64,000 nt of DNA from IMG/VR virus record IMGVR_UViG_3300032167_000048, one strand, 5' to 3'. The DNA comes from a virus (taxonomy: Duplodnaviria > Caudoviricetes). Positions within the stretch are counted from its first letter, which is position 1; the number at the start of each line of letters is the position of its first letter. Shown here one piece after another: positions 10,201 through 64,000 of the stretch. Position numbers and translations under genes: made by a program. The notes beneath the pieces were generated by a model that ran no database searches, was not told the DNA's origin, and saw only the letters and a program-made list of their open reading frames with translations.

Positions 10201-13200
10201 TTAATGAAATAGAAGTTGCAAATCCAGAAGAATTTTTGAGCGATTTAACAGCAAGTGAATATTCTGTAATGGTTGACTTGGTAGCAGATGATTTTGATTT
10301 AAGTGGTTTTGACGCTCAGGCTCTTAGAGATTATATTAGAAACCTTGCAGATATTAAAGATGCAATGGCTTTCGAAACAGATATTAGCGTTGATACAACT
10401 GCGTTAGAAGCTTTAAATACCGCATTATCAGAATCTGCTTCTGCTATTGGTCTTACTGAGACATCAATAGACAGTTTGAAATCAAGATATGAAGACCTTG
10501 AGGGTTACGATATATCTACTTTATTTGAGAGAACTGCTAGTGGTATCAAAGTAAATAGAGATGAACTTGCTAGGTTAGAAGAAGAATATCAGAATTTAAA
10601 ACAAGCAGATGTTCAAAAACATTTAGATACTCTTGTTGACGAATATAATAGACTCACAGCCGAGATTGACAACTGTTCAAATGCAGCTGAAAGAGCTAAA
10701 CTTATGTCTGAGCGTGACGGATATGTGTCACAGATTCAGGAACTTGCCGAATACCAAGCTCAATTAGAGGGCGTTACTGGAGCATATAAAAAATGGATTG
10801 ATGCTCAAAATGAACCAGAAGACCATGAGGGTTATGAAGCTGTTGCTTCTGGAAGAAAAGATGTAAAAGCTGAACTTGATAGAGGTATCATGAGCAAATC
10901 AACAAAAGCTTATATCGACCTCTTATCTGGCGAAGATTTATCTGGTAAAAGTATAGATGAGTATGCGGCAGCTTGGGAAAGACTTGGCGAAACAGTTGGC
11001 GAAACTGGATATACCGTTCATGATTTCTTTACAGTTAATGACGAGGGTAAAATTACAAGAACTGGTATTGATAGATTCTTCGAAAGCGTTAAAAGTGAAT
11101 TCGAAGGAATTTATGATGAAGATACTGGATTGTACGATTTTAGCGAGGATAACCTAAAAGCAATTCAAGAAAAATGGGGTATGGGTATTGATGCTATTCA
11201 ACTCATGCTTGAAGCAGCTTCATCTGCTGGTTATGAAGTTGACTGGGGTGGAATCTTTGATGATATTGAAATAGATTTTTCTGATTATGAAACATTAATC
11301 GCTCTTGCAGAATCAGCACAGCAGGCTTTTAATGACTTGGATATTGATGGGCTTGAAGATGTAGAGTTTAATTTTGAAACTTCGAATATTGAATCTGCAA
11401 CATCTGAAATGAAAGAGGCTCAGAAGATTTATAATGACCTTATAGACCCAGATAAAGACGGAAATGTTAATCTTGAAGCGGAGGGCGCTGAGGAGATGAG
11501 GGTTGTACTTTCAACTCTTATATTCCAAAAGCAGCAACTTGAAGATTCAAATATATGTCTTAACATAGATACTTCTCAATTAGATGAATCACAGGCTGAA
11601 ATTGGTGCTGCGATTAGTGCTGTTCAAAATTTTAGAGAAAAATTCAAAAATCTTGAAATAGCTATTAATACTGGCGATGGTATTGAAAATGCAAAAACGG
11701 AGCTTAAATCAGCATTAGATGGTCTTAGTGCTGAGGGAGTTGACGTTGATATTGCCGCCCAACTTATACTTGGTGAGGGTAGCGATGCTGCCGACCTTAC
11801 TGAAAAAGTTAATGCGGCAGTTGAAGCAGTTGGACAACCAGAAGTTGATGTTGGATGCAAGCTTGATGAAACAGCTATTGGGACTTTAAATTCTCAATTA
11901 TTAACTAATTTTACTCCAGAGGCTACTGTTAAAATTACTAAGATTGACGAATCATTAGTAAACAATTATCAGACTACTGAAAAGACTGCTAATGGTAAAG
12001 TTATATGGGATAATGATGAAACATTAGTTAATCAGTTTAAGGCAGAAAAACATGAAGCAAATGGTAAGGTTAAGTGGGATGATGATTCTGCAAGTCTTAA
12101 ACTTTCTGGATGGAGAGCAACTGGTACTGTAACTTGGACTAGTGGAAACAATGTTCAGGTTAAAGTTGTTAAACTTGCTAATGGTACTGCGAATGTAAAC
12201 GGAACTGCTCTTGCTGGCGGTACTACTGGTCGTGCATTTAAGCAAGGTGACTGGAGCATTAAAGACTCTGGAACTGCACTGGTTGGAGAACTTGGTACAG
12301 AAACATTAGTTCGTAATGGTAGATATTATACTATTGGTGATTCTGGCGCTGAATTTATTAAATATAAAAAAGGCGACATAGTATTCAATCACAAACAAAC
12401 AGAAGAACTTTTCAAAAATGGAAGGGTAACTTCTGGTGGTGGTCGCGGAAGAGCTTTCGCAAATGGAAGTTACGCTTCTACTGGTAGAGCGTTTGTAAAT
12501 TCGACTGTATCTGAATCAGATTGGGTTAAAAAATATAAGAATAATTCCAATACAAATAATAACACCTCTAATAATACAAGTAGCAATAGAACAAATACAA
12601 CAAATAGAAGTAATAATAATACAGATACAAAAGATACTGCTAAGGATTTTGAAGAAACATTTGACTGGATTGAAATAGCACTTGAACGTGTAGAAAAAGC
12701 TATTGATAGTCTTGACCAAAAAGCAAATGCTACATATATAACTTGGTCTAAAAGAAACAAGGCTCTTTCCGATGAAATTGGCGTTGTAAACGATGCGATG
12801 GAAATTCAGCAGATGGCTTACGAAAGATACATGGATGAGGCTAATTCTGTCGGTCTTGATAGCAAGTATAAAAAAATGGTTCAGGATGGAAGTATTGATA
12901 TTAACAATATTACCGATGAAGACCTTGCTAATAAGATAAAAGAGTATCAGGATTGGTATGAAAAAGCCCAAGATTGTAAAGACGCAATTGAAGAACTTCG
13001 CGAACAAGAAGCCGAACTTTATGCACAGAGATTTGAAAACGTTCAAAGCCAATATGACGCTGTTGTTCAGGGATATGAACATACAGAAAAAATGCTTGAT
13101 GAATATATTTCTCAGGCGGAAGCTAAAGGTCATATTGTAAGTAGCGAATATTATAATGCGTTAATTGCAAATGAAAAAGCTACTATTTCTGCGCTTGAAG

Positions 13201-25592: not shown

Positions 25593-25650
25593 TTTATATG
25601 ATTAGAGGACGATAAACTCGTCCTCTTTTATTATGAAAGGAGGACATGAA

Positions 25651-28600
25651 TTGAGTTTATCATTTAAAGATTCTTTAAAAAATAATATTGAAAAAACTGT
25701 AGCAAAACCATTAAAGTTAGCTGCTACAATGAACATAGATGAACCAAGTGTTGAAAATGTTGGAATTATGACACTTGAAGAAACTCCTAGTGTTGCTGCT
25801 TATTCTGGCGATGGTGGAAATTGGCAACAGCACAATAAATATGTATATTATTCTGTTTTTAATGACAATAATGTTTCAACTATTAGTGATAAAAAAGAAA
25901 TAAAATTAGATGGAAATCAGTTCAATATCACTCAAGAAGAAAATTCTCAGTATATACCGTTTGAAATGAATAGAAAATATGATGGCTATGATTTAACAAA
26001 AGCGGATATTACTATTCATTATACAACTGCAAATGGAAGACATCAGCCTGTTAGACCAGTAAATGTAACTTATAATAATGATAAGATTAGATTTGGATGG
26101 CTTGTTGATGCAAATGCTACGGTTGATGTTGGTACACTTGAATTTGAGATTCATGCTGACGGTATTGTAACTGGTAGCGATAATGTTCCAAGAGCTTATA
26201 CATGGAAAACTAAACGCAATAAAGAGTTGTATGTTTACGAATCTATGTGTGATTGCGAGGGTGTAATCAATGACATTGATAATAGTTGGTTGCAAGAGCT
26301 TGTAACAGATTTAGCTGAAAGCATTGCAGAAGAAGTTAAAAAAGTAGAAGTTGGAAGCTTAGTTACTCAGGCTGAAGACGCTGCTGATAGAGCAGAGACT
26401 GCTGCTAAAAATGCAGAAACTACTGCTACAACTATTGTTGAAAATGCTTTAGAAGATTATAGCACAACATCAGAAATGCAATCATATGTTAATCAGCAGA
26501 TTGCAGATGCTGATATCGAGGGCAAACTGACTGCTTATGCAAAAACAACAGAAGTTAAAGCTTTGGTTGGTAATATTGGCGAAGCCGAAAATCTTGTTGA
26601 TTATATTGATACAGCTGTTGATTCTGTTGATGTTTCAGAACAGTTAAAAGATTATGCTCTTTCAGATGACGTTAATAAGTCTATTGAAAATATTAATAAG
26701 AATTTAACTGATAATTATTATACAATTGCAGATTCTGACTTGAAACTTGTAACTACTCTTGAAGATGGCGAATACGCTACTAAGACAGATGTTGCAAATG
26801 CTATTGCGGCAGAAGATATTACTGCAAAATTAGGTAATTATTATACAAAAGATGAAACATATAATAAGTCAGAAATTGATGAAGCCATTAAAAACGTTGA
26901 GGTTGATTTAACTGGATATGCTACTGAAACTTTTGTAACAGATAAAACAAATCCTTTGGAAAGTTCAGTTAAAACAAATAAAGAAAATATTTCTTCTTTA
27001 AGCGAAACGCTTGGAGAATTGCAAGAAAGCGTTAATGCGATAGATACTTCTCCACGTATTACATATGATGTTGTTTATAATGATGCAGAAGACCCAGATG
27101 TTGGTGAAAATGTATTTGTATTTTATGAAATTGAAAACGAGGGTAAAGAGGGAGAAAAGAAAGAAGCTAAAAAGAAATTCACTATTACTGGTGGTTCTGG
27201 TGGCGGTTCTGGTAGCTCTCTTAAAATTTCATATGTAACAACATCTCCAGTTATAGCAACAGTAAATGATAAAATGTTGATTACTTATAACTTCTCTGGA
27301 ATTGATTCATCTGGTGACGTTATAACAGAGGGTAATTATACATGGAAAATTGGTTCAAAAATTATTGCGTCTGGTATCGCCACAAATGGAGATAATACTT
27401 TTGATGTGACCGATTTTGCAACTACTACAAGTCAGAAGTTTGTATTAACAATTACAGACGATGCTGGAAGCTTGGTTACAAAGTCTTGGACTGTACAAAA
27501 AGTAGACGTAAGATTAGAATCTAATTTTAATGATGCTTATAAATATAATGGAAATGTATCTTTTAATTACACTCCTTATGGTGCAATTGAAAAAGATATT
27601 CACTTTATTTTAGATGGGGAAGAATTAGGAGTGGTAAAAACTTCGACTTCTGGTATTCCTACATCATATATGCTTCCATCTCAAACACATGGAAGTCATT
27701 TATTAGAAGTATATATGACGGCTACTATTAACAATACGTTAGTAGAATCTAATCATATATACAAAGATATTATTTGGTTTGATGACAATACTTCTATTCC
27801 AGTTATTGGATGTGCCACAACTACAATTGATGCGATTCAGTATAATACTATAAATATTAAATACGCTGTGCACGACCCTAGAACAGAAACTCCAGAGGTG
27901 ACATGGCGTATTGGAGAAAACGTATTAAGTGTAGAAACATTAACAGAAAAAGATGAATATGGTTATTATACATATTCATATAAAGCAAATAGCGAGGGAA
28001 CATTTGTATTTACTATTACTTGCGGAGAAGCAGAACCAAAAGTAATTACAATGAATGTCGAAAAATTAAGTATTGATATTGAGCCAGTAACTGCTGGATT
28101 GGCATTTGATTTTGACCCAAACCCTACTGACTATTCTAATAGTTCAGCAAATAGATTATGGTCTGACAAAAATACTGGTGTAAATATGACTGTTTCTGAC
28201 AACTTTGACTGGGTTAATGGTGGATATCAAATTGATGAGAATGGCGATAAGTATTTTTGCGTAAAAGCTGGTACTACTGCTACAATCAATTATAACTTAT
28301 TTGGCGATGACCCTAAAAAAGATGGTAAAGAATTTAAAGTCATCTTTAGAACTAAAAATATTAGAAAGCGTGACACTTCTTTCTTAACTTGTATGAATGC
28401 AAATATTGGTTTAGATATGAAGATTGAACATGCTACTATCTATGAAAGTGGTGGCTCATTAAAATCAAATTATTGCGAAGACACAATCGTTGAATATGAA
28501 TTTAATATAAATAAGTATACAGATATGATGATAGTTATGTCATATGAAGATGGTACTCCTAGTAAGCCTTATGAATATACTGAAACATCATCATTCAAAC

Positions 28601-31600
28601 AGTCTACAGCACAGCCTATTACAATTGGTAGCGATGATTGTGATGTATATATTTATAGAATGAAAGCATATTCAAATTCATTAACAGATACAGATATTAA
28701 AAACAACTTTATTGCCGATGCAAGAAACGCTAGTGAAATGATTACTAGATATAATAGAAATAACATCTATAATGAAAATGGTAGTTTAGTATCTACTTCG
28801 GCAGTTGGTGATTTTAATGTTGATGCTTTAATGAAAGCTGCCCCAGATTTAAGATATATCTTTATTGAAGTTCCATATTTTACATGGGATAAAGATATAA
28901 AGATTGACGATTGTAAAGTTTATTTTAGATATCCTAATGGTACTAGACCACACGATAATTGGGATTGTACTGGCGTAAGACACAGAGGTCAGGGTACTTC
29001 AAGTAACTTGTATGGTTATTCAGGAAGAAATATCGACCTTTGTATGGACAGAGATGAATCTTTGTTTACGTGGACTGATACGGATGAAAATGGAAAACCT
29101 ATTACCGTTGAATCTTCTACTATTACTTTAACAGATACATCAGTTCCTACTGATTATTTAAACATCAAAGTAAATATTGCATCTTCTGAAAATGCAAATA
29201 ATGCTGGCATGGCTAAAAGATTTAATGAATATCAGCCTTTCTTACGTTATGCAAGAAAGAAAGATAGTAGGGTTAAGGACACTATGGAGTTCCACAACTG
29301 TGTTGTATTTATTAGAGAAACTAGTACAGATGTAAAACATACAGAGTTTAATGACAGCAATTGGCACTTCTATGCAATTGGTAACGTTGGCGACTCTAAG
29401 AAAACAGATGATACTCGTGTTAATAATAAAAAAGACCCAAAAGAACATGTAGTTGAAATTACAGACGCAGATAAACCATTATCGGCTTTTCCAACTGGAA
29501 AAGATGGTCATGCAGTATGTCCAATTAACGAATGGACAACTGGTAACACAGCTTATGATGTATTATATTCTAATGAATATGTATATGATGAAGAGGGAGA
29601 ATTTAAGTCATTTGGTGGAAAGACATATGAATTTAGATATGAAATGAAAAATATTACAGAAGAACAACGTCAGGTTAATATTGATACATGGAGAGATTTA
29701 TATAAATTTATTGTTACTTCTACTGATGAAGAATTCTATGCTCATTTAAAAGACTATTTTGTTGTGGATTCTGCATTGTACTTTTATCTGTTTACAGAAA
29801 GATATACTATGGTAGATAACCGTGCAAAGAACTCATTCTGGCATTATGGAAAAGTATATATTTCAAACGAAGAAGCTGCCGCTCTTGGAGAAACAGAAGC
29901 TAGTTATTACATTATTGACGATGAAGCGGCTTCAATCAATAATGGGTATCGTTATGACCTTACATTTGGTTATGACTTTGATACTTGCTTAGGTATTGAC
30001 AATACTGGTGATTATGTATTCTCATACGGAAAAGAAGATACAGATTATTATGTTGATGGAGACCCAACATCTGACTATGTATTCAGAGTTGCAGACAGTG
30101 TATTCTTCTGTAGACTTCGTGATTTATTCCCAGCAGAAATGCAGTCTATGTTCAAAAACAGAGAAGATAAGAATGCATGGAGTTCTGATTCTCTTATTTC
30201 ACAGTGGGATAATTCTCAAGCTCAATTTCCAGAAGAACTTTGGAGATTGGACTATGAAAGAAAATATTATAGAACTTACTTAGGATTATCTATCGATAAT
30301 AGCATAACAACTGCCGATGATAGAATGGCTAGAGGCATAGATAAAACATTCCTTATTGGTAAATTCTTTGGTCGTAAAAAATATGCAAGAAGAGCATTTG
30401 AAATTAATCAGGAAATGTATTTTGCTACAAAATACTTTGGAAATAAAGCTCTTGCTGATAGATTCTGGGTTAGAGGTAATGTGCCTATTGGCGGAAGTAT
30501 AAAACCAAATTACTCTCTTACATTAGTTCCTTATTCTGATATGTATGTATGTGTACAGTATACTAGTACTGGTACTCCAATTCATAAAAAAGCGAAAGCT
30601 GGAGAAACAGTATACTTTGAAAGTGACGCAGAAAGAATGGACTTTATTTATGTGTATGGCGCAAGCTTCATTCAGGAAGTAGGAGACTTATCAAGATGCT
30701 TCATTGGAGACAACAACTTTTCTAGTGCTATTCGTTTACAAAAACTTGTAATTGGTAGTACAGATGACGGTTATGAAAATACATTTATGAACGAGGTTCT
30801 TGTTGAAAACAATCCTCTTTTAGAGTACTTAGACCTTAGAAATGTTTCTGGTATTAACACTGTTGTCAATGTAAGTTCATGTAGTAATTTGAAAGAATTA
30901 TATGCAGAGGGCACTAATGCATCTGGTGTGATTTTTGCAAATGGTGGATTATTACACACTGCTCACCTTCCAAAGATTAATTCTTTAGTAATGAAGAATT
31001 TAAATTATATAACAGATGAAGGTTTTGTAGTTGATGGATATGATAATTTACAGACTTTAATTATTGAAAATACACCTAATATTAATACTTATAATGTTGT
31101 TGATAATTCCCCTATTCTTAATACAGTTAGATTAATTGGTTTGAATTGGGATTCAACATATCAGATTAAAGATGCTTCAATTTTCGACAGATTGATTACT
31201 ATGGGCGGTAGAGATTCATCTGGTATCCTTGACACAGATATGTCTGTATTAGCTGGTAACGCTCATGTTGCTGTGTTAAAACAGAAACAGCAGAGCGATT
31301 ATGACAAGGCTTGGTCTGATTTGGACATTACTTGTAACACTTTAATTTTACAGTTCCCAGTTACATTTGTTAATGAAGATGGAACTGTATTAGATGTTCA
31401 GTATATTGATGAGGGTGGATTTGCTGTAGACCCAATAACAAGAGATATAAATCCTATTGACGTTCCTACAAAAGAAAGCTCAATAAGTACAAATTATACT
31501 TTTGATAGTTGGGATACTGACTTTAAAAAGATGCCTATCTTTGAACCGTTAACAATCACTGCAACATATTCTGAATCTATCAGACAATATGGTATTCAGT

Positions 31601-33075
31601 ATAGAGCTATGGGTAAACCATTAAAAGGATACGAAACACCAGTTGTTGGTAACTATGGTGATAACATCCCTTATGTTGGTTCTACACCAACTTATACAGA
31701 CGAAGAACCTGCATATAAATATTATTTGTTTAATAGATGGAATAAGAGTGGAATCTTAAATGGTGATTTTAATGATGATGACGTTAAAATTGTAGATGCT
31801 ATATTTGATGATTTCAAATATACATCTAGTGCGTTTAATAACGTAGAACTTTCTGAATTAAAACCAGTTCAAATTTATGCGATGAATAAACTTGGAATTG
31901 CCGAAAGCATTATCACAGACGGAGACCCATATTCATTTGTTATCGGAAATGATGTTAACTATGATGATATTGAATCAAAATTATTGATATCAGAAAAGAC
32001 TTATTTTGACGGAACAAATTACATTGATACTGGAATTCGTTTATTTGAAGAAGATAAAGATTTTGTTCTCGCAATCGATTATGAATTCTTAGATGGTACT
32101 GCATCAGATTCAGTATTAGCTGAATGCTTCCAGACAAATGGAAGCAACGGATTTAAACTTTCATATAATAGTGGTGCAAAGTTTACTTGGGGAACAGCTA
32201 CTGATAGTAATAACGTTGGTGAAATTGGTAAGCGTGAAATTATAGTTATCAGACATAAGAAAGGCGATAACAATTTAACTATTTATAAGTCTAATCTTGA
32301 TAATAATAATGTTTTAACTAACGAATTGTCTAGAAACAAGATTACAACTGGTTCATGTTCTTTAATATTTGGAGCTTCCAACCCAGAAGATGGATATTAT
32401 GAAAACAACGCTGTTGGTAATATTCACTGGGCAAAAATTTGGTATGCTGATTTAGGAAATGACATTTGTAAAGATTTAGCTATGTGGACACATGAGTCTA
32501 TTACTTTGCAAGCTTGTGGATTTAGAAAGTATTTCTTATCAGATAATCCATCTAAGAGATGTTCATTTAGCTTATTGGCTTCACACTTATTAGGAAGAAC
32601 AAAATTATGGAATGCTTCCAATGTTAATGATGGCGGTTGGGCTACATCAGCATTAAATACATCTTTAAATGGTAGATTATATAATGCTATGCCAACACAG
32701 ATTAAGTTGTTAATGAAGCAAGTTATTGTTTATTCAAATGACGGTATCACAAATACATCTGTGACTCCTAACAAGTATTATACAGAAGTAACACCTTCTA
32801 ATTGTTATATTACTGTGCCATCTGTTATAGAAGTTGATTCTTCTCAAAATATTGAACCATATAATAGTGAAGGTACACCTATTTCATATATGAGCAGGGA
32901 TGAGTATAGAAAGCGTGCGTTTGATGGTGGAAATTATCATGCTTATTGGCTTCGCTCACCTAATGCAAATTATGCAAACTGGGTATGGCGTGTGGATGAG
33001 ACTGGTAAGGCGCAAGGAATTAGTCAGCCAAATGTTATTAATGGTTATGGCGTATTAATTCAAATATCATTTTAA
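25651..33075 (+). CDS. giant (~2470 aa) tail fibre/receptor-binding protein: BppU-like N-terminus, YTK repeats, LamG-like, CotH-kinase-like, LRR and DUF6273-like C-terminal domains
   Basis: AAGGAGG SD before TTG 25651; RGQGTSS, DNRAKN and YDFDTCLG motifs; LEYLDLRN/LKELYAEG LRRs; GGWATS.L and YWLRSP at the C-terminus. Confidence 0.7.
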   Translation: MSLSFKDSLKNNIEKTVAKPLKLAATMNIDEPSVENVGIMTLEETPSVAAYSGDGGNWQQHNKYVYYSVFNDNNVSTISDKKEIKLDGNQFNITQEENSQYIPFEMNRKYDGYDLTKADITIHYTTANGRHQPVRPVNVTYNNDKIRFGWLVDANATVDVGTLEFEIHADGIVTGSDNVPRAYTWKTKRNKELYVYESMCDCEGVINDIDNSWLQELVTDLAESIAEEVKKVEVGSLVTQAEDAADRAETAAKNAETTATTIVENALEDYSTTSEMQSYVNQQIADADIEGKLTAYAKTTEVKALVGNIGEAENLVDYIDTAVDSVDVSEQLKDYALSDDVNKSIENINKNLTDNYYTIADSDLKLVTTLEDGEYATKTDVANAIAAEDITAKLGNYYTKDETYNKSEIDEAIKNVEVDLTGYATETFVTDKTNPLESSVKTNKENISSLSETLGELQESVNAIDTSPRITYDVVYNDAEDPDVGENVFVFYEIENEGKEGEKKEAKKKFTITGGSGGGSGSSLKISYVTTSPVIATVNDKMLITYNFSGIDSSGDVITEGNYTWKIGSKIIASGIATNGDNTFDVTDFATTTSQKFVLTITDDAGSLVTKSWTVQKVDVRLESNFNDAYKYNGNVSFNYTPYGAIEKDIHFILDGEELGVVKTSTSGIPTSYMLPSQTHGSHLLEVYMTATINNTLVESNHIYKDIIWFDDNTSIPVIGCATTTIDAIQYNTINIKYAVHDPRTETPEVTWRIGENVLSVETLTEKDEYGYYTYSYKANSEGTFVFTITCGEAEPKVITMNVEKLSIDIEPVTAGLAFDFDPNPTDYSNSSANRLWSDKNTGVNMTVSDNFDWVNGGYQIDENGDKYFCVKAGTTATINYNLFGDDPKKDGKEFKVIFRTKNIRKRDTSFLTCMNANIGLDMKIEHATIYESGGSLKSNYCEDTIVEYEFNINKYTDMMIVMSYEDGTPSKPYEYTETSSFKQSTAQPITIGSDDCDVYIYRMKAYSNSLTDTDIKNNFIADARNASEMITRYNRNNIYNENGSLVSTSAVGDFNVDALMKAAPDLRYIFIEVPYFTWDKDIKIDDCKVYFRYPNGTRPHDNWDCTGVRHRGQGTSSNLYGYSGRNIDLCMDRDESLFTWTDTDENGKPITVESSTITLTDTSVPTDYLNIKVNIASSENANNAGMAKRFNEYQPFLRYARKKDSRVKDTMEFHNCVVFIRETSTDVKHTEFNDSNWHFYAIGNVGDSKKTDDTRVNNKKDPKEHVVEITDADKPLSAFPTGKDGHAVCPINEWTTGNTAYDVLYSNEYVYDEEGEFKSFGGKTYEFRYEMKNITEEQRQVNIDTWRDLYKFIVTSTDEEFYAHLKDYFVVDSALYFYLFTERYTMVDNRAKNSFWHYGKVYISNEEAAALGETEASYYIIDDEAASINNGYRYDLTFGYDFDTCLGIDNTGDYVFSYGKEDTDYYVDGDPTSDYVFRVADSVFFCRLRDLFPAEMQSMFKNREDKNAWSSDSLISQWDNSQAQFPEELWRLDYERKYYRTYLGLSIDNSITTADDRMARGIDKTFLIGKFFGRKKYARRAFEINQEMYFATKYFGNKALADRFWVRGNVPIGGSIKPNYSLTLVPYSDMYVCVQYTSTGTPIHKKAKAGETVYFESDAERMDFIYVYGASFIQEVGDLSRCFIGDNNFSSAIRLQKLVIGSTDDGYENTFMNEVLVENNPLLEYLDLRNVSGINTVVNVSSCSNLKELYAEGTNASGVIFANGGLLHTAHLPKINSLVMKNLNYITDEGFVVDGYDNLQTLIIENTPNINTYNVVDNSPILNTVRLIGLNWDSTYQIKDASIFDRLITMGGRDSSGILDTDMSVLAGNAHVAVLKQKQQSDYDKAWSDLDITCNTLILQFPVTFVNEDGTVLDVQYIDEGGFAVDPITRDINPIDVPTKESSISTNYTFDSWDTDFKKMPIFEPLTITATYSESIRQYGIQYRAMGKPLKGYETPVVGNYGDNIPYVGSTPTYTDEEPAYKYYLFNRWNKSGILNGDFNDDDVKIVDAIFDDFKYTSSAFNNVELSELKPVQIYAMNKLGIAESIITDGDPYSFVIGNDVNYDDIESKLLISEKTYFDGTNYIDTGIRLFEEDKDFVLAIDYEFLDGTASDSVLAECFQTNGSNGFKLSYNSGAKFTWGTATDSNNVGEIGKREIIVIRHKKGDNNLTIYKSNLDNNNVLTNELSRNKITTGSCSLIFGASNPEDGYYENNAVGNIHWAKIWYADLGNDICKDLAMWTHESITLQACGFRKYFLSDNPSKRCSFSLLASHLLGRTKLWNASNVNDGGWATSALNTSLNGRLYNAMPTQIKLLMKQVIVYSNDGITNTSVTPNKYYTEVTPSNCYITVPSVIEVDSSQNIEPYNSEGTPISYMSRDEYRKRAFDGGNYHAYWLRSPNANYANWVWRVDETGKAQGISQPNVINGYGVLIQISF

Positions 33076-57389: not shown

Positions 57390-58151
57390 TTAATTTACTT
57401 TGTATACGTCTGCATGTCTTGAGCCAAACTGCAATGCTTCGCTATGACTGTTAAAATAAATGTCTACATGACCATACGGAGTTCCTCTGTCCTCAACTGT
57501 ATACACATGTCCATTAATTAAAAGTTTTGTGCCAAAGGCAACACCGCCCATAGCAACTGTTCTTCCAGCTGATGGCATAGTGCCACTTGCTGTTGCGCCA
57601 CCAGCCCATTTTCCACAACATTTAGAGCAGTTGCAATATGCTGTTAATCTAAAGTTGCCTAAGTATTCGCTTGCTTTTTCTTCTGCTGCTTTAATTTTTT
57701 CATTTTTTGTTTCTTCGTCCATTAAGTATTCGTTCCAAAGATAGAAGTGACTATATCTTCCATTTTCATTTAATACTGAAATTTTTGTCCAACCATTATA
57801 ATCAGACATTGCTGTTACTTCTGTATATGGCTTTAACACTTTTGTAACGTTTGAAGTGATATTTGGAAATGGTCTCATATTTAAATATGTTGTAGTATAT
57901 AAAGTTTTGTATTCATCATATTCATTACTGAAAAGCATATCTAAATATTCGTCTGTAATATCTAATGGAATAGCCATTTTCCAATTCTTTACTTCTGTTG
58001 CTTCAATAATTTTTTCTACTTCTGGTTTTTTAGTTTCATTTGTTTTTGTTTCGCTTGTTTTTGTGCTACTCTGTGTTTCTGCTTTCGTTGAACAGCAAGG
58101 AATTACCATCAACGAAAGAGCCATAAACAAAATCAATAAACCTTTTTTCAT
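57390..58151 (-). CDS. secreted SH3 + 3D-domain cell-wall hydrolase
   Basis: Signal peptide, LNMR SH3, TAY..TASG..VEDRG..HVDIY 3D motif. Confidence 0.8.
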   Translation of the reverse strand: MKKGLLILFMALSLMVIPCCSTKAETQSSTKTSETKTNETKKPEVEKIIEATEVKNWKMAIPLDITDEYLDMLFSNEYDEYKTLYTTTYLNMRPFPNITSNVTKVLKPYTEVTAMSDYNGWTKISVLNENGRYSHFYLWNEYLMDEETKNEKIKAAEEKASEYLGNFRLTAYCNCSKCCGKWAGGATASGTMPSAGRTVAMGGVAFGTKLLINGHVYTVEDRGTPYGHVDIYFNSHSEALQFGSRHADVYKVN

Positions 58152-58163
58152 TTTATATTCTCC

Positions 58164-58748
58164 TTATTCTCCCCAGCACTCGGCACGATGTTCGCAATCG
58201 TCACAGTCTAAATCTGTGTCAAGACATTCATCAATTTCATCGCACTCATCACATTCATCACAATATTCACAACAATCATAACATCCGTTACAGTCGCATT
58301 CTTCTTCATATAATTCACTCTGAAGTTTATATCCTTCAAGCTCCCAAATTTTATCAATAATTTTATCCACGCAGATTTCAAATCCCATTTCTTCATCATA
58401 ATTATCTGGGCTTACGCATGCAGATGATTCTACAATAACAAATCCGTTTGGAAGTTCGCATGTTACAATAGTACACTTATCATAAATTGTCTGAATTTCA
58501 ATATTTGATTTTGCAACAATACGTTTAATCATTTCTTCTGTTACTGTTGGAGCTGCTTTTGGTTCTACATATTTTTCAAAATATTCATTATATTCATCTG
58601 TGCTCATTACTCCTTTGTGCATCATGTGTTCACCAAATGCAAATGAAATAATACCACCATCAACACCAATTACTTCTGCGATGTCTCCTTTTTTTAAGAA
58701 GCTTGTTACATCTTTTGTTACGATTAATTTGTCTCCTTTAGCTAACAT
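58164..58748 (-). CDS. phage Gp49-like protein with acidic Cys-rich tail
   Basis: L.NGF...ESSACVSP.NYD..IWELEGY motif; C-terminal C..C repeats. Confidence 0.7.
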   Translation of the reverse strand: MLAKGDKLIVTKDVTSFLKKGDIAEVIGVDGGIISFAFGEHMMHKGVMSTDEYNEYFEKYVEPKAAPTVTEEMIKRIVAKSNIEIQTIYDKCTIVTCELPNGFVIVESSACVSPDNYDEEMGFEICVDKIIDKIWELEGYKLQSELYEEECDCNGCYDCCEYCDECDECDEIDECLDTDLDCDDCEHRAECWGE

Positions 58749-58751
58749 AAT

Positions 58752-59915
58752 TTAGCCCTCACTTTCTTTTCTTTCATTTTTAATTTTATTTGACCACCAA
58801 ACATTCCATTTTTCTACAATCTCTTTCTGTTCTTTTGTAAGAGGATGATTGTATCTCTGTAATGCTTGGACAATCTTATCGTTTCTAACCTCAATTGTTA
58901 CGAGGCTTTCGCTTGGTGCGTCTTTATATCTTAAGAATAAAATATGACACTGACCATCAATAACTCTTTGGATATATGATGCTACACAGTTGTTCTGAGC
59001 AACGGCTTCATCTTTGATATCCTGAGTACAATTTGGATAAAAGAATCTATACTCTCCAAACGTTTTCTCCATATCTTTATTAATTCTATCTTTGAATTTT
59101 TCTTCTTTAAACTGCTGTTTTAATCTATCATAGTTTCTACAAGCAATCTGATGTGTTGTAAGAAAATGTCTAGGGTATTTATCAAATTTATCACTAATTT
59201 GTTTCATCATAGATGCATAATCATAAATTTCACCCAATGCGCTACTTGGAATAATGGCTTCAAATGTCATCAAATAATCAAGATAATTCATTAATCCTTT
59301 TACTGTATATCCATATTCTGAAATAAGCTTATTAAATGTTGAAACACTAACCCAGTTATAATCCCATGTTCTTTCTCCGTAATATTTTTTTACAGATTTT
59401 GTATTATGTAATATGCTATTAATTTCATCATCTGTTAATGACATATATTCAAGCTTATACGCAAGTTGATATCCGTCTGGATTTTCTTTATAATTTTTTA
59501 AAAAGCTATCTGATAATTTAATACTATGTGTTTTACATAATTTAATTAATGCTTTTGGAATGTCATTGATTGTATATGAGAAATTACGAGTATTAATAAT
59601 ATCTTCAATTCCAGCAGAAAAAATCTGTTCGTATTTTGCATAACGTGGAATCTTATCTAAAATTGTTCCAACGTTATTAATGTCATGAAATCTGCTTGAA
59701 TATGTTCTTTTAACAAATGAAAGAAACTTTGCATACTTCTCATCTTCACAACAATTAATAACATCATCCATTGTCAACCCTCTTAACTGAGAGCACAAAT
59801 TAGTTACTGGTTTACCTTTTTTTCCAATACATTCTTTTGTAGCGAAATTATATTTTACTGTCTTGCCATCTTCAAAATCAAAAATTAAAAACTGTCTTTC
59901 TTTATAAACTTTCAT
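58752..59915 (-). CDS. PcfJ-like domain protein
   Basis: E...NNCVASY, ILFLR and TIEV....Q motifs. Confidence 0.7.
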   Translation of the reverse strand: MKVYKERQFLIFDFEDGKTVKYNFATKECIGKKGKPVTNLCSQLRGLTMDDVINCCEDEKYAKFLSFVKRTYSSRFHDINNVGTILDKIPRYAKYEQIFSAGIEDIINTRNFSYTINDIPKALIKLCKTHSIKLSDSFLKNYKENPDGYQLAYKLEYMSLTDDEINSILHNTKSVKKYYGERTWDYNWVSVSTFNKLISEYGYTVKGLMNYLDYLMTFEAIIPSSALGEIYDYASMMKQISDKFDKYPRHFLTTHQIACRNYDRLKQQFKEEKFKDRINKDMEKTFGEYRFFYPNCTQDIKDEAVAQNNCVASYIQRVIDGQCHILFLRYKDAPSESLVTIEVRNDKIVQALQRYNHPLTKEQKEIVEKWNVWWSNKIKNERKESEG

Positions 59916-59960
59916 ACTTCTTTTTCATTCATTATTTAAAACCTTGTTAATAAGTTACAA

Positions 59961-60039
59961 TTGCAAGATAAGGATTTGAACCTTAGTTTAATCTTAGCTT
60001 TGCTATAAGATTCGTGTTATCCATTTACACTATCTTGCA
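59961..60039 (-). ncRNA. tRNA-like element with an elongated, anticodon-less arm
   Basis: Acceptor TGCAAGA/TCTTGCA, D arm GTGT/ACAC, T arm TAAGG-TTCAAAT-CCTTA; anticodon arm is 23 nt instead of 17. Confidence 0.65.
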
Positions 60040-60046
60040 TTAATAT

Positions 60047-60448
60047 GTTATTCGCTATTTACCAGCCTTGCAGATGCTTATAGTCATGTACAACTAAACT
60101 AAACTGTATATCAAGGATTTTGTAAATCTTTATAACTTTACTATTTATTCTTTTAACTTTGACTCATGAAATAAACTTTGAATTTTTAACTTTATTATTT
60201 GAGTTTTACAACTTTAAACTTTACAGTCCCACTATGTAAATATTTATCAATATTTGGCTATAAGTTTAACACACTTACCCATTTTGATAAACAATCAAAT
60301 AAAAAGATTTCCAATCTTTTCCTCTGTTGTTTTTCTAAATCTCAGCTTTTAAGAAGAAGAGGTGTTTCTTTATTGTTTTACATAAGTCTAAGCACCCCTA
60401 AAAGACTTATGAGTTGTAGTCTAAAGTTTTCAATAAACAGCGAATAAC
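60047..60448 (-). ncRNA. candidate ~400-nt structured ncRNA with AAAG heptamer array
   Basis: 17-bp terminal stem whose 3 G-U pairs work only on the minus strand, internal hairpins, 12 AAA(G)NNN units, no credible ORF. Confidence 0.6.
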
Positions 60449-60484
60449 CAATTTATATTAACTACATAAGTAGCTTTCTACTAT

Positions 60485-61141
60485 TTAGTAGTTAACTTCA
60501 ATTTCTGTAATTGCATTAGATACTGAAAGCGCAGCGTCTACTTCTGCCTTGAATGTGTTAATATGTTCTTCTAATGCGTTAATCTTATCCAGAATCTTGA
60601 TAGGGTCTACAAGTTCGTATGTATTTGCTTTAATGAACTGCATTCTAGCCTTTTCATATTCTTCTGTATTCACCTTGCCCTCTTTAGAACCAAATGCACC
60701 AATTACATACTGTTCTGCTCTTTTTTCAAGTTCAGAGCCGTTTTCTCTAAGGATTTCAGCCTGAGCTCTGTTATACTGTTTCTGTAATTCAAGGAGCATG
60801 TGTTCATCAAAAGTAACACCATGATTTTTCATTTCAATAGCTTCTGCCACTGTGTATTCAATACCATTAATTTTTACTTTTGTTACTGCGTTTGACAATA
60901 CAACAGCTTTTTTAATAGCGTTTCTTCTCTTAATCAAATCAGATGCCTTGTCGTAGTTTCCCTGCATAACAGTTTTATATTCTTCAACTGACACGCCTTT
61001 GATTTTATCGTTTGAATGTTTATTTGCTACACAAAATGAACCATTCATAATAGAAGAAAGAATTCTATTATCTAAAAGCTTTAATTCTGCTAATGCTTTA
61101 TGAATTGTCATCTTTTCATTTGTTGCCATGATTTTCACCAT
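60485..61141 (-). CDS. 218-aa helical protein linked to the downstream ncRNA
   Basis: MTIHKALAELKLLDNRI..YTVAEAI..VDAALSVSNA.T.I helical-hairpin pattern. Resemblance to DIP1984/DUF6847-type proteins is tentative recall only. Confidence 0.7.
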   Translation of the reverse strand: MVKIMATNEKMTIHKALAELKLLDNRILSSIMNGSFCVANKHSNDKIKGVSVEEYKTVMQGNYDKASDLIKRRNAIKKAVVLSNAVTKVKINGIEYTVAEAIEMKNHGVTFDEHMLLELQKQYNRAQAEILRENGSELEKRAEQYVIGAFGSKEGKVNTEEYEKARMQFIKANTYELVDPIKILDKINALEEHINTFKAEVDAALSVSNAITEIEVNY

Positions 61142-61215
61142 TTTAACCTTTCTTTTAAACTTTGAATCTTTTAAACTTTATTACACCAACGTTTTATAGG
61201 CTAGACATTGGTAAA

Positions 61216-61285
61216 CAAGAACGGTGGGAGTCGAACCCACGTCTACGACTTAAAGTCATTGCTCTACCTACTGAGCTACATTCCC
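61216..61285 (-). tRNA. atypical tRNA/pseudo-tRNA with shortened anticodon arm (UUA if read as a 4-bp stem + 7-nt loop)
   Basis: GGGAATG-TA-GCTC-AGTAGGTA-GAGC-A-ATGACTTTAAGTCGT-AGAC-GTGGG-TTCGACT-CCCAC-CGTTCTT-G, 70 nt. Confidence 0.6.
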
Positions 61286-61358
61286 GATTGTGTAGGGACT
61301 TCCTACACAGCACCTAAAAAGGAAAGGAGGATTATTTAAAAAAGATTTTCTACAACGA

Positions 61359-61431
61359 CTGCCCCTACTGGATTCGAACCAGTGTAATGCAGGAGTCAAA
61401 GTCCTGTGCCTTACCGCTTGGCGAAGGAGCA
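61359..61431 (-). tRNA. tRNA-Gln(UUG)
   Basis: Canonical cloverleaf; anticodon arm CAGGA-CTTTGAC-TCCTG; no encoded CCA. Confidence 0.92.
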
Positions 61432-61436
61432 ATAAG

Positions 61437-61525
61437 TACACCCTCCCAGATTCGAACTGGGCTTATACCTTGCTAGGGCTTACGACTTATAAGGTCGTGG
61501 CTCTCACCTAATGAGCTAAGGGTGC
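61437..61525 (-). tRNA. tRNA-Ile(UAU) with long variable region
   Basis: Acceptor GCACCCT/AGGGTGT, anticodon arm ACGAC-CTTATAA-GTCGT, 20-nt variable region, T arm CCCAG-TTCGAAT-CTGGG, discriminator A. Confidence 0.8.
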
Positions 61526-61624
61526 TGAAAGGAGTGCCGCCTTTAACGGCTTATTCATTTTAGAATAAGGTTGAGTTCCACTGCTTTATGACAAAAAACA
61601 AAGAATCCAGAGATTCGAAATTGG

Positions 61625-61768
61625 CTATTTATCATTGATTGCAGATTTTGCTCTCTGCTTTTCTCCCTCAATTTCATTACTGAGTTTTCTCATAATTGAA
61701 GTCCATCTTGCATAAGCTGTATGCTTTCCTCTTTTACTGTTTACATTTGAATTCTGATTAAGATTCAT
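61625..61768 (-). CDS. 47-aa basic protein, first gene after the tandem promoters (not in ORF track)
   Basis: MNLNQNSNVNSKRGKHTAYARWTSIMRKLSNEIEGEKQRAKSAINDK; AAGGAG SD. Confidence 0.6.
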   Translation of the reverse strand: MNLNQNSNVNSKRGKHTAYARWTSIMRKLSNEIEGEKQRAKSAINDK

Positions 61769-61799
61769 ATTGTTCTCCTTATAACCTTATTTTTTATTT

Positions 61800-61944
61800 G
61801 CTTCATTTGATATATTTAGTATATCATATTTAAAGCAGTTTGTCAAGTAGTTTTTTGAACTTTTTATTTTTTTATTTCTATTTGTTCGCTTCACTTGATA
61901 TATTAACTATATCATATTTACCATTATTTGTCAAGTAGTTTTTT
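61800..61944 (-). promoter_or_regulatory. two duplicated strong sigma-A promoters driving the tRNA/ncRNA operon
   Basis: TTGACA-17-TATACT (61818-46) and TTGACA-17-TATAGT (61906-34), both with an extended TG and identical AAAAAACTAC upstream; 88-bp period. Confidence 0.8.
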
Positions 61945-61951
61945 AGACTTT

Positions 61952-62407
61952 TTACATTTCTTCAATGTTTTTATATTCTGACAGATTGTGGAAGTAATTA
62001 ACCTTATCATCTAATTCGTATACTACTTTTCTTAATTCGGCTTCTTTTTTCTTGCTATCAGTTCTTGTATACTTCTTCCACATCTTATCTCTTTCTTTGT
62101 GTAATTCAACGTATTTCTCGGTCACATCTTCTTCGCCAATGACGTTAATTACAATTGGTTCTCCACAGAATGGACAATGAGTTAACTTATAATAAGTTTC
62201 TTCTTCATATTCATCTCCCCAGTCATAAAATGATTCTGTGAATCTTATAGAAATTGATGGAGTAATTGTATCTTCGCATTCATCTGTGTATTCGCAAACC
62301 AAATTAATTATAGGATTGTTTTTTAGTTTTTCACAACACCATTCAAATGGCTTATATTTATAACCATCATAACAATCAAATGTCTGTCTGATTAATTCTA
62401 TATTCAT
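61952..62407 (-). CDS. hypothetical protein with CC...CPFCG zinc motif
   Basis: WCCE...HCPFCG. Confidence 0.6.
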   Translation of the reverse strand: MNIELIRQTFDCYDGYKYKPFEWCCEKLKNNPIINLVCEYTDECEDTITPSISIRFTESFYDWGDEYEEETYYKLTHCPFCGEPIVINVIGEEDVTEKYVELHKERDKMWKKYTRTDSKKKEAELRKVVYELDDKVNYFHNLSEYKNIEEM

Positions 62408-62432
62408 ATACTTCCCTTTCGTTTATGTATGC

Positions 62433-62470
62433 ATTATAGCATATAACATTATTGATTGTAAGTACTTTTT
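62433..62470 (-). promoter_or_regulatory. sigma-A-type promoter
   Basis: TTACAA-17-TATAAT with extended TG and the same AAAAAAGTAC upstream motif as the thyX promoter. Confidence 0.6.
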
Positions 62471-62479
62471 TGGGAAAAA

Positions 62480-63148
62480 TTATAAATTATCCTTAAGATA
62501 ATTTAAATATTCATCCCAGAAGCCTTTTACATAAATGTACTCTTTGCTTTGTCTAGCCAGCTTCATTTTCTTCATATCATCTTTTATATTAAAGGATTCA
62601 GATTGCTTCTTGCCTCTCTTGCAAAGACTTTTTGACATGATATCGTCTAAGAAATCATTCGTAACTCTTGAGATGGAAAGTAGCTCGCCTTTAGGCACAT
62701 CCTTGGTAATTTCTTTATATAGTGCGATTTTCTCGGCTGGTATTTCCACATTTGACTTTGGAAGATTACGGCTTGAAAATGGTGAGATACTAGCTCCACT
62801 TGTACGTGCTTTTAATAATTCTGCTACAATTTCAATGTCAGCAGCTTTAAATTTGAATTCTACTTCTTCGTCATTTTCAATATGGTCAACATATTCAATA
62901 CCACTTTCTTTAACTGCTTTAATAATATTATGACCACGTCCAATTGATGGTATATATGCAACCAACCACACTGGTCTCTTATTATCAATATGACCATATG
63001 TGTAAATTCTATTTCCATTTTGACACGAAATATAAACATCTATATCTTCAATGTTCCCATCTGCGTCCCTAGGAAAATCATTTGTGTCTTGGTCTAATTC
63101 ACATAGTAGTCTATATTGTCCTTTGTATCTCATCAAATAATTTGCCAT
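62480..63148 (-). CDS. hypothetical phage protein
   Basis: 222-aa ORF with GGAG SD; no recognised family. Confidence 0.65.
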   Translation of the reverse strand: MANYLMRYKGQYRLLCELDQDTNDFPRDADGNIEDIDVYISCQNGNRIYTYGHIDNKRPVWLVAYIPSIGRGHNIIKAVKESGIEYVDHIENDEEVEFKFKAADIEIVAELLKARTSGASISPFSSRNLPKSNVEIPAEKIALYKEITKDVPKGELLSISRVTNDFLDDIMSKSLCKRGKKQSESFNIKDDMKKMKLARQSKEYIYVKGFWDEYLNYLKDNL

Positions 63149-63150
63149 AA

Positions 63151-63423
63151 CTAATACTCCTTACCTTTAAACAACTCTCTGGCTAAAACAGTTCCACATT
63201 CAATAGTTTCAATATCAAAATCTACTGGCATAATTGCACATTCATGCATTACAACAATTGGAACTTTCATTGTTTCAGCCACTCGACCCTCTTTACCTAA
63301 TTCACTCATAGAATAATTAATAAACATTTCCATGAAATTTTGTGCTTCTTGTTGAGATTCAAACAAGATAATTCTGCCTTTATTATGAAAATAAAGACCG
63401 CTCTTATGCATGATTATAAACAT
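63151..63423 (-). CDS. hypothetical protein
   Basis: ORF with GGTGG SD. Confidence 0.55.
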   Translation of the reverse strand: MFIIMHKSGLYFHNKGRIILFESQQEAQNFMEMFINYSMSELGKEGRVAETMKVPIVVMHECAIMPVDFDIETIECGTVLARELFKGKEY

Positions 63424-63467
63424 ATTTCATTCACCACCTAATAAAATTGGGATTTTAAGTGCTATTT

Positions 63468-63516
63468 TGCACTATATATAGTGCATTAGAAAATGCTAAC
63501 ACACTATATATAGTAG
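63468..63516. promoter_or_regulatory. tandem NrdR-box-like palindromes
   Basis: TGCACTATATATAGTGCA and ACACTATATATAGTAG with centres 32 bp apart; matches the acaCwAtATaTwGtg consensus. Confidence 0.7.
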
Positions 63517-63524
63517 TTAAAAAA

Positions 63525-63764
63525 TTACATGTCTGCCAATCTGTCATTCATAGAATCAATTTTTAATTTGTCTGAATGAGTCATGCCATGTTTACAATTG
63601 AAATCAGTCTTGCCAGCACATAACGGACAAGAGCAATGAACTTTGTTCTTAGAGTATTGATGCAGATTATCATATAATGACGCTCCATGATTATGCTCTG
63701 CGATATTCTTTTTTCTGATTGCCTTGTTATAATCGTTTTTTCTTCTCTCTGCTCTTGTTTTCAT
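63525..63764 (-). CDS. small basic protein with HCSCPLC motif
   Basis: Start MKTRAERR after a GAGG SD. Confidence 0.6.
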   Translation of the reverse strand: MKTRAERRKNDYNKAIRKKNIAEHNHGASLYDNLHQYSKNKVHCSCPLCAGKTDFNCKHGMTHSDKLKIDSMNDRLADM

Positions 63765-63783
63765 AATTGTACCTCTTATAATT

Positions 63784-64000
63784 TTATTTATTTGTACTAC
63801 CGAATCCACCAACTCTTACATTGTCTGTATTACCATTATCAGCAACTAAGAAGTTAAAGAATGCTCCCTGAGCAACTCTATCTCCTTTATTAATTGTTAA
63901 TACATCATTACTAATGTTTTTTAAGAAGATGCCAATGTTGCCATCATTTCCATCATTAGAGTAATAATCCGAATCAATCCATCCAGAAGTGTTGGCTAAC
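63784..64000 (-). CDS. dut: dUTPase (3' part; not in ORF track)
   Basis: LANTSGWIDSDYY...GDRVAQ...RVGGFGST, trimeric dUTPase motifs III-V. Confidence 0.9.
   Translation of the reverse strand, partial: LANTSGWIDSDYYSNDGNDGNIGIFLKNISNDVLTINKGDRVAQGAFFNFLVADNGNTDNVRVGGFGSTNK

Follow-up and report, generated by a model that had tools for sequence, protein, structure and literature searches.

A structured RNA with a phased heptad array and its adjoining helical-protein gene: a candidate two-part module of mobile tRNA arrays in phages and cyanobacteria

What is the 402-nucleotide (nt) region without open reading frames (ORFs) that directly follows a gene for a protein of 218 amino acids (aa) among the tRNA genes of the virus record IMGVR_UViG_3300032167_000048 (Duplodnaviria; Caudoviricetes)? 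The stretch of 64,000 nt analysed from this record is called the window below, and the features of the locus, which lies on its minus strand, are collected in Table 1. A first-pass annotation, made from the sequence by itself, had taken gene and region for an undescribed system in which a helical protein is accompanied by a non-coding RNA of about 400 nt that carries an array of AAAG heptamers and is bracketed by tRNA-like elements. Comparison with relatives shows that the region encodes a pseudoknotted RNA, that a catalogued orphan motif, RAGATH-27, makes up one fifth of it, and that the RNA has an obligatory partner in the adjoining protein gene. The reading favoured here, with a probability of about 0.5 and from sequence comparison, is that the two are a two-part module of mobile tRNA arrays, in which the heptads of the RNA would be the putative binding platform of the protein.

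The region is free of ORFs, as had been noted: each sense frame holds 10–17 stop codons, and the only ORF of at least 40 aa is an antisense one of 82 aa. Coding under a changed genetic code, which a nearby tRNA with a UUA anticodon might bring to mind, was considered and rejected, since every one of these frames contains stops of all three kinds (10–17 per 148 codons) and stop reassignment therefore cannot make the region coding. The 17-bp stem said to close it (60448–60432 with 60063–60047, three of the pairs being G-U) is present in both the minimum-free-energy and the centroid folds, with z = −3.4 and none of 100 shuffles as good, and is lengthened by an invariant pair between G60431 and U60064. 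Covariation was counted pair by pair in an alignment of 66 non-redundant relatives made with MAFFT, for the helices named P1 (the closing stem), P5 and P5′. Here 89.7% of the cells are paired, against 67.5% in shuffles (0 of 500 reach the observed value), and sliding the partners by 1–3 columns leaves 30–46% paired, with a covariation score of 0.09–0.18 against 0.637 for the true register. Double changes occur in 21 of the 26 pairs of the three helices; P5 is paired in 99.1% and P5′ in 93.4%, both with double changes, and P1 and P5 are found by RNAalifold in the phage-type and the cyanobacterial sets when these are run apart. The argument that G-U pairs reveal a structure at the RNA level of the minus strand is borne out by the relatives, which have near-invariant G-U pairs at alignment columns 12/736 (61 of 66) and 19/729 (66 of 66). 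Because these pairs are valid on the gene's strand only, the RNA is of the same strand as the gene.

Two pseudoknots organise the interior of the RNA. The hairpin 60411–60404/60388–60381, one of two that had been proposed, shows strong covariation with many compensatory changes (RNAalifold, phage set); as it is interleaved with the stem of the Rfam model described below (60398–60393/60364–60359), the two make up an H-type pseudoknot. The other hairpin, 60320–60302, is in its place, in a region too variable for comparison. The suggestion that UACAACU (60418–60412) and AGUUGUA (60095–60089) pair at long range proved right, for they form a conserved 7-bp helix, P3, the sequence of which differs in almost every clade. 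Since MAFFT shifts the 3′ strand of this pairing by 1–2 columns between clades, P3 and the adjacent helix P2 were tested free of any alignment, by comparing cognate with non-cognate duplexes between the junction strand that follows the 5′ arm of P1 and the interior of the P5 hairpin. The junction strand pairs with its own P5 interior at −9.6 kcal/mol against −6.2 kcal/mol for non-cognate combinations in the phage set, and at −11.8 against −10.6 kcal/mol in cyanobacteria; 0 of 5000 permutations were as good in either set. The duplexes are the same two helices everywhere, a P3 of 7 bp and a P2 of 5–7 bp, with sequences that vary by clade, and together with P5 they form the second pseudoknot. Two other pairings were tried and dropped. 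The loop of the 5′ hairpin had been matched with the 3′ GGCUG, but relatives have differing hairpins upstream, and most of these are without such a complement; as for an extra helix AAAAC(Y)/(R)GUUU, RNAalifold places the GG of GGUU in P5′, a pairing that covaries. Conservation between the genes is concentrated in two blocks, the RAGATH-27 block and a 3′ block of 180 nt, which keeps 87% nucleotide identity where the proteins are 75% identical.

Part of this RNA is already catalogued. An Rfam scan of positions 58000–64000, run with Infernal under permissive filters and reported to E ≤ 1, gave a single non-tRNA match above threshold, RAGATH-27 (RF03100) at 60444–60359, with 88.0 bits against a gathering score of 76.1 (E = 7.9e-12; model positions 1–86 of 86). 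The window RNA is thus a member of a catalogued motif and not categorically unknown; of the claim that it is undescribed, what stands concerns the remainder, which lies outside Rfam, since the model spans 21% of the RNA and includes neither the heptad array nor the 3′ domain. The model has one stem, its first 46 positions being annotated as unpaired, and the junction pairings indicate that this 'unpaired' 5′ half actually forms P1, P2 and P3 with a 3′ domain that lies some 300 nt off and outside the catalogue. The model matches the same position in 11 relatives; it gave no match in any cyanobacterial member tested, and Rfam gave none at the T5 member. ROOL, GOLLD and the type III antitoxins, which the first-pass annotation had named as families to be excluded, gave no match in the same scan at E ≤ 1. 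As a motif, RAGATH-27 is an orphan candidate that reportedly stems from the 2017 comparative survey by Weinberg et al. Its name is absent from the main text of that survey (PMC5737381), the supplements being outside the search. No paper naming RAGATH-27 was found in a literature search, nor was any account of the gene-RNA pair in the literature on related protein families, phage tRNA clusters and T5 RNAs. New with respect to Rfam and the literature searched are the full architecture of the RNA, its partner gene, the phased array and the range from T5 to cyanobacteria.

The array itself was found as described, with twelve units of 7–8 nt, which fall into sub-arrays of seven and five. In the window alone its periodicity is modest, being reached by 49 of 2000 shuffles, and the decisive evidence is comparative. 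Sub-array 1 aligns without gaps in both phyla and shows the UYAA core seven times at an exact 7-nt pitch; it is followed in relatives by a spacer, four or five units and a near-invariant AUNAAAUCC leading into P5. Pooled over relatives, the unit consensus is Y (0.93), A (0.99), A (0.95), a (0.69), g (0.68), y (0.79) and U (0.96), so that A2, A3 and U7 are nearly constant and positions 4–6 drift. What had been called an AAAG heptamer array therefore keeps its register exactly across relatives, the conserved unit being UYAA at a 7-nt pitch and AAAG a local flavour. When a position matrix of the unit in three tandem copies was run over both strands of the window (128 kb), the array scored 22.7 bits and the leader of the 218-aa gene 20.8 bits; the next site reached 15.3 bits and shuffles 13–16. 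The leader, in which the heptads abut the Shine-Dalgarno sequence, is the sole other site above the null in the window. In the phage clade the leader tops every other 57-nt segment of its own locus in 15 of 32 loci, a count that missed at least one case (locus L063), in which the start codon was mis-called. A perfect CAACCTT tandem of at least six copies, with the UYAA core at a 7-nt pitch, was also seen in a Moorena tRNA array (L149, about 1535–1590); it may instead be an ordinary cyanobacterial heptamer repeat.

Gene and RNA go together in both directions. A search with the protein gave 80 viral contigs at 50–76% identity, and a protein-profile search 80 genome loci, about 18 of them of Clostridia type and about 60 from filamentous cyanobacteria at 31–37% identity. 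A profile of the array and 3′ domain matched downstream of the gene at 157 of the 162 loci examined. Of the remaining five, four are truncated shortly past the gene and one, with a partial protein match, is a probable pseudogene. In the reverse direction, a degenerate pattern built from the RNA alone, from the start of the array, returned 119 stretches, among them 30 true RNAs by profile, and the gene is directly upstream on the same strand for 29 of these 30; the thirtieth, without the gene, has only 1.1 kb of sequence upstream. The homologues keep the stem and the array downstream, and on this point the claim of a protein-RNA system was not refuted. Searched in protein mode, 741 of 50,697 records of cultured phages (about 1.5%) carry the protein, namely T5-like, Vibrio, Bacillus, Pseudomonas, Klebsiella, Erwinia, Lactococcus and Ralstonia phages; a nucleotide search of the same phages finds 2 records only. 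In all six of the cultured phages tested, the unannotated gap of 300–560 nt after the gene holds a profile match (E = 6e-15 to 5e-6), and T5_ev219, when read directly, has a P1 of 16–19 bp, P3, P5, the array and leader heptads. Among relatives the partner RNA is 240–470 nt long, P1 begins 5–36 nt past the stop codon of the gene, and the orientation of the array relative to the gene is constant in all loci. A small ORF is inserted between gene and RNA in loci L070 (3151–3418) and L083 (3133–3531), where the RNA is intact; abutment of the two is thus usual, not required. The linkage holds at protein identities as low as 31%, and it extends over phages of gut Clostridia, over T5-like, Bacillus, Lactococcus, Vibrio, Pseudomonas and Ralstonia phages and over the cyanobacterial tRNA arrays. 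No other neighbour gene common to the phage and cyanobacterial groups was found.

The variable region of the RNA serves as a slot for other folds. Of the RNAs compared, 12 of the 33 from cyanobacteria and 2 of the 33 of phage type carry a whole tRNA or tRNA-like fold there; in loci L106 (3224–3294), L150 (3182–3251) and L159 (3177–3251) and in nine more cyanobacterial loci it lies between P3a and the array. The body of this slot tRNA is orthologous across species and its anticodon stem covaries, while nearly every species has an anticodon of its own (atc, gtc, tcc, atg, gag, acc, ctc, gaa, ttg, tgt and ttt); some of the loops lack U33 and some T-loops are non-canonical. The loci themselves are rich in tRNA genes of the same strand, with a median of 14 per 5.6-kb cyanobacterial locus and 3 per phage locus. 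The tRNA-like genes said to bracket the pair were confirmed by ARAGORN and Rfam (48.9 and 57 bits). Such bracketing is frequent in relatives and not a fixed trait, a tRNA being found within 150 nt downstream at 25 of the 66 loci.

The cyanobacterial copies of the pair lie inside long tRNA arrays of the kind described in PMC8421152, including that of Calothrix desertica PCC 7102, one of the organisms that the paper deals with. Those arrays comprise tRNAs, an HNH gene, rtcB, dpsA and a promoter repeat; the hypothetical genes embedded in them are drawn as empty arrows, and neither the present gene nor any non-coding RNA is mentioned (PMC8421152). Cyanobacterial arrays with the pair also contain genes for a microbial-type PARG macrodomain (9 of 33 loci), NADAR (6 of 33), RNA ligase and HNH endonucleases, as in L100 (3400–4254 and 4509–5249), L108 (4576–5082) and L160 (3281–4240); together they look like a set for undoing ADP-ribosylation and rejoining RNA. 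RtcB is encoded in Dulem virus 39, the closest deposited relative of the window. Surroundings of this kind, with tRNA arrays, RtcB and genes for RNA ligase and for PARG-like and NADAR proteins, point to the supply of tRNAs, to their damage or to counter-defence.

The partner protein belongs to a large family with 3389 cluster representatives (50% identity) at E ≤ 1e-3, nearly all of them 205–220 aa long, and with invariant residues that include R26, R72, K77, N84, K105, D202 and N209. No Pfam family was found for it at E ≤ 0.01. Its AF2 model (pLDDT 84.6) shows a bundle of helices, with short strands at the N- and C-terminal ends. The top solved fold is 3kdq of the DIP1984 family (VIA-align Z 10.1, root-mean-square deviation 5.8 Å over 150 of 152 residues; runner-up Z 7.3), VIA-align having high chance scores for helical models, and Foldseek gives E = 0.02 against 3kdq. 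By this match the two have a fold in common, the 218-aa protein being about 65 residues longer. The NCBIfam model of DIP1984, NF038048, gave no match to the window protein, and a cyanobacterial homologue scored 13.6 bits against a cut-off of 70 (E = 0.055). The nearest Atlas cluster bearing a Pfam family, that of the DUF6847 (PF20935) phage proteins, has a score of 0.86 and is a lead only. The protein also matches phrog_1491 (E = 6e-57), which carries the label 'tail fiber', and homologues in T5-like and other phages are labelled 'tail fiber protein' as well (e.g., L281, 1507–2145). This identity was considered and rejected: the gene lies amid tRNAs and early-type genes, opposite the structural ORFs, and bacterial copies are found inside tRNA arrays. 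Its location in a tRNA region and its predicted helical-bundle fold make the label implausible, and on the T5-like records it looks like a propagated error; the correction concerns hundreds of phage records.

In the module proposed here, a protein of about 210 aa with a DIP1984-like helical fold would be paired with an RNA of the length range given above, encoded directly 3′ of its gene. P1 would close the RNA, and the junction strand, by P2 and P3, would pair into the loop of the P5/P5′ hairpin to give a pseudoknotted core. From this core would be held out, on the one hand, the variable slot, with the RAGATH-27 pseudoknot here and a tRNA or tRNA-like fold elsewhere, and, on the other, the single-stranded array of 7 + 5 UYAA units, on which the protein may assemble with about one subunit per unit into a ribonucleoprotein. 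That the protein reads the units is suggested by their exact 7-nt register, by the obligatory co-inheritance of the protein and by the presence of the same units on its own ribosome-binding site; the odds of direct binding between protein and array are, from these comparisons, put at about even. In the phage clade, once the array is full, surplus protein would bind the 2–4 identical units of the leader at the ribosome-binding site, a putative negative feedback. The RNA would most likely be made as the tail of the gene transcript and be trimmed at flanking tRNAs, and an RNase P cut at the tRNA-like gene 59961–60039 may set its 3′ end. Judged by their consensus, the pair of promoter-like sites upstream could drive the whole unit of tRNAs, gene and RNA, and between them and the RNA no terminator-like site was found on the same strand except one tRNA T-arm. 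A tRNA-directed role of the particle is suggested only tentatively. So is its most specific form, in which a DIP1984-fold protein would polymerise on the UYAA array of a tRNA-presenting scaffold and serve as a decoy or repair platform against tRNA-targeting defences, a picture held here as possible and well short of probable.

Several observations count against a protein that reads the array. No RNA-binding domain was recognised in it with Pfam and NCBIfam, the family is mildly acidic (median isoelectric point 5.7, range 5.2–8.2), and its sole outstanding structural relative, 3kdq, is itself without an assigned function. The linkage of gene and RNA could also be explained by obligatory co-transcription without physical contact. 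P2 is weak in the window's own clade, and heptads stand in only 3 of 32 cyanobacterial leaders, so that feedback is not a universal feature. A different reading has the RNA acting alone or with host factors, for instance as a machine made of RNA only, or as a decoy or platform that presents a tRNA to tRNA-directed enzymes, the protein being no more than co-transcribed or having its place of action elsewhere. In its favour, the pseudoknotted core is intricate and, by the identities given above, better conserved than the gene; the slots hold tRNAs with anticodons that differ by species; the protein is acidic, and RNA ligase, PARG-like and NADAR genes are nearby. Even the unit, when written as y6-U7-Y1-A2-A3-a4-g5, fits the anticodon-loop pattern Y32-U33-NNN-R37, in a reading of our own. 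What this does not account for is a linkage of 97–100% both ways across phyla while all other neighbours change, together with the same units on the gene's own ribosome-binding region. In addition, the hosts extend from E. coli through Bacillus to cyanobacteria, over which a common host partner is less likely than a co-inherited protein, and an RNA that works without the protein is rated as possible at odds well below even. That the RNA is a cis-acting 3′ untranslated element, a structured cap that shields the gene's mRNA from 3′ exonucleases or guides the processing of a transcript punctuated by tRNAs, with no function in trans, is unlikely. The short distance of P1 from the stop codon leaves no room for a promoter of the RNA's own, there is no terminator between the upstream promoters and the RNA, and a tRNA often follows closely, all of which suits such an element; for these purposes, however, a simple hairpin would suffice, whereas 12 phased units, two pseudoknots and near-invariant junction bases have been kept across phyla, and the RNA stays intact in the two loci where an ORF has been inserted after the gene.

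Systems in which repeats neutralise a protein, or serve as substrate or sponge for a nuclease, deserve the same weighing. In type III toxin-antitoxin systems such as ToxIN, tandem repeats of about 34–36 nt lie upstream of the gene for an endoribonuclease toxin. ToxIN, CptIN and TenpIN resemble the present pair in combining a protein with a repeat RNA on phage or mobile DNA, where the repeat RNA adjoins the protein gene, and the A-rich units may resemble the cleavage sites of some endoribonuclease toxins. The gene order, however, is the reverse of that in ToxIN, the units are degenerate and of 7 nt in place of exact long tandem repeats, and no antitoxin RNA was matched in the Rfam scan. Pfam and PADLOC scans gave no match to ToxN/AbiQ, though a missing match alone leaves that family conceivable, and the only PADLOC result was an insignificant one to AbiEi (E = 0.035); the predicted fold is a helical bundle nearest to 3kdq and unlike a Kid/ToxN-like barrel, and the 741 phages that carry the gene are both lytic and temperate. 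A toxin-antitoxin or decoy function of this type is therefore very unlikely. Least credible of all is a function at the DNA level, with the array serving for instance as iterons, a promoter cluster or bent DNA and the stems being incidental. In its favour are the AT-rich phased repeats and a weak promoter-like match at 60240–60211 (9 of 12). Against it, the helices that enclose the array covary by way of G-U pairs that can form on just one strand, every locus has the array in the same orientation to the gene, and repeats spaced 7 nt apart do not keep phase with the turns of a DNA helix.

As for a protein that assembles on phased repeats, precedents exist. TRAP, on the trp leader, and HutP, on hut mRNA, form rings of subunits that recognise short repeats spaced in phase along single-stranded RNA, and HutP sites recur every 7 nt. 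The present array is like theirs in its conserved short cores, here UYAA, in its fixed pitch, in lying in an unpaired stretch and in its 7 + 5 copies; it differs in that it is part of a large closed RNA 3′ of the gene and not of a 5′ leader attenuator, and in that the protein is predicted to be helical. No TRAP or HutP domain was found in the 218-aa protein by Pfam at E ≤ 0.01, and the AF2 model is mostly helical; the mode of binding may be like that of TRAP or HutP, probably with membership in neither family. Ro60 (Rsr) acts with bacterial Y RNAs such as YrlA and is encoded beside rtcB/rtcA. A long terminal stem, a tRNA-like module, an adjacent protein gene and RNA repair genes nearby are common to both cases, whereas Y RNAs have no heptad array. 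No Y RNA family was matched in the Rfam scan, and no TROVE domain was found in the neighbouring ORFs scanned with Pfam or in the loci inspected. The closed stem, internal tRNA slot and RNA-repair neighbours of the candidate module may thus recall Ro60 and its Y RNAs as an analogy, without membership. ROOL and GOLLD, the large ornate RNAs that phages and prophages often encode close to tRNA genes, share with the window RNA the character of a large structured phage non-coding RNA in a tRNA-rich region, but the latter is of smaller size and is tied to a protein gene as its obligatory partner.

The pair is of interest beyond this record, since it is carried by about 1.5% of cultured phage genomes and by horizontally spreading cyanobacterial tRNA arrays. 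With model phage T5 among the carriers, its predictions are open to standard tools. Phage tRNA clusters counter tRNA-cleaving host defences, and a conserved component of such clusters that is not a tRNA is therefore a direct lead. If the bolder, tRNA-directed reading is true, the module would be a widespread and undescribed ribonucleoprotein of mobile tRNA arrays that intervenes in how an infected or stressed cell manages its tRNAs.

Table 1. Features of the gene-RNA locus in the window, with positions counted from the first letter of the window
Feature	Position	Strand	Remarks
tRNA-like gene	59961..60039	-	Anticodon arm aberrant; begins 7 nt past P1; ARAGORN 'tRNA-???', Rfam tRNA 48.9 bits
Whole RNA	60047..60448	-	402 nt, from P1 5′ arm to P1 3′ arm; fold and covariation
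P1 3′ arm	60047..60064	-	Preceded by near-invariant GGCUG (60067-60063)
3′ domain	60065..60125	-	Conserved ACAAAAUCC; P5 60116-60112/60070-60066; P5′ 60106-60104/60073-60071
P2b and P3b	60083-60077 and 60095-60089	-	Enclosed by P5 and P5′ in the 3′ domain
Heptad sub-array 2	60126..60161	-	Five units past a 12-nt spacer, 60173-60162
Heptad sub-array 1	60174..60223	-	Seven units, one of 8 nt; conserved CUG before; strict register in 66 relatives, two phyla
Variable region	60227..60358	-	Includes hairpin 60320-60302; slot length varies in relatives, often with a tRNA or tRNA-like insert
RAGATH-27 stretch	60359..60444	-	H-type pseudoknot: a 60411-60404/a′ 60388-60381, b 60398-60393/b′ 60364-60359
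Junction strand	60412..60430	-	AAAA, P2a CUUUAG (60426-60421), P3a UACAACU (60418-60412); pairs into P5 hairpin interior
P1 5′ arm	60431..60448	-	Partner 60047-60064; double changes in 14 of 18 pairs
218-aa helical protein gene	60485..61141	-	ORF; partner of the RNA
Leader of 218-aa gene	61150..61180	-	Four UYAAAG-type heptads running into Shine-Dalgarno GAAAGG
tRNA with UUA anticodon	61215..61286	-	73 nt upstream of 218-aa gene start; ARAGORN, Rfam
tRNA-Gln and tRNA-Ile(UAU)	61357-61525	-	Farther upstream than the UUA tRNA
Two promoter-like sites	61934-61906 and 61846-61818	-	Each 11 of 12 matches plus extended -10 TG; consensus match only

Throughout about 54–64 kb of the window the genes run on the minus strand, and after the promoter-like pair come a small ORF, three tRNA genes, the 218-aa gene, the 402-nt RNA, the tRNA-like gene and a PcfJ-like gene. 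Two giant ORFs of 3634 aa (4266–15170) and 2480 aa (25633–33075) lie on the plus strand; they suggest that the phage makes a very large protein of virion or RNA-polymerase-like type, and their position on the opposite strand places the locus in the non-structural part of a large phage. A gene of the N4 gp49 family is found at 58164–58748. Homologous proteins occur in Enterocloster and Clostridium records. The tRNA-Ile(UAU) at 61436–61525 measures 90 nt and has a long variable arm. The tRNA with the UUA anticodon would be ochre-reading and has a shortened arm; no sign of TAA read-through was seen in the long ORFs of the window. Other orphan RNAs were met near the pair in relatives: RAGATH-36 lies 1–1.6 kb upstream of the gene in four loci (L074 and L078, 900–1056; L072, 946–1074; L063, 1452–1579), and skipping-rope, FuFi-1, RAGATH-18 and a phage tmRNA are also present (L061, 4577–4656; L029, 2169–2341; L056, 3841–3914; L070, 469–878).

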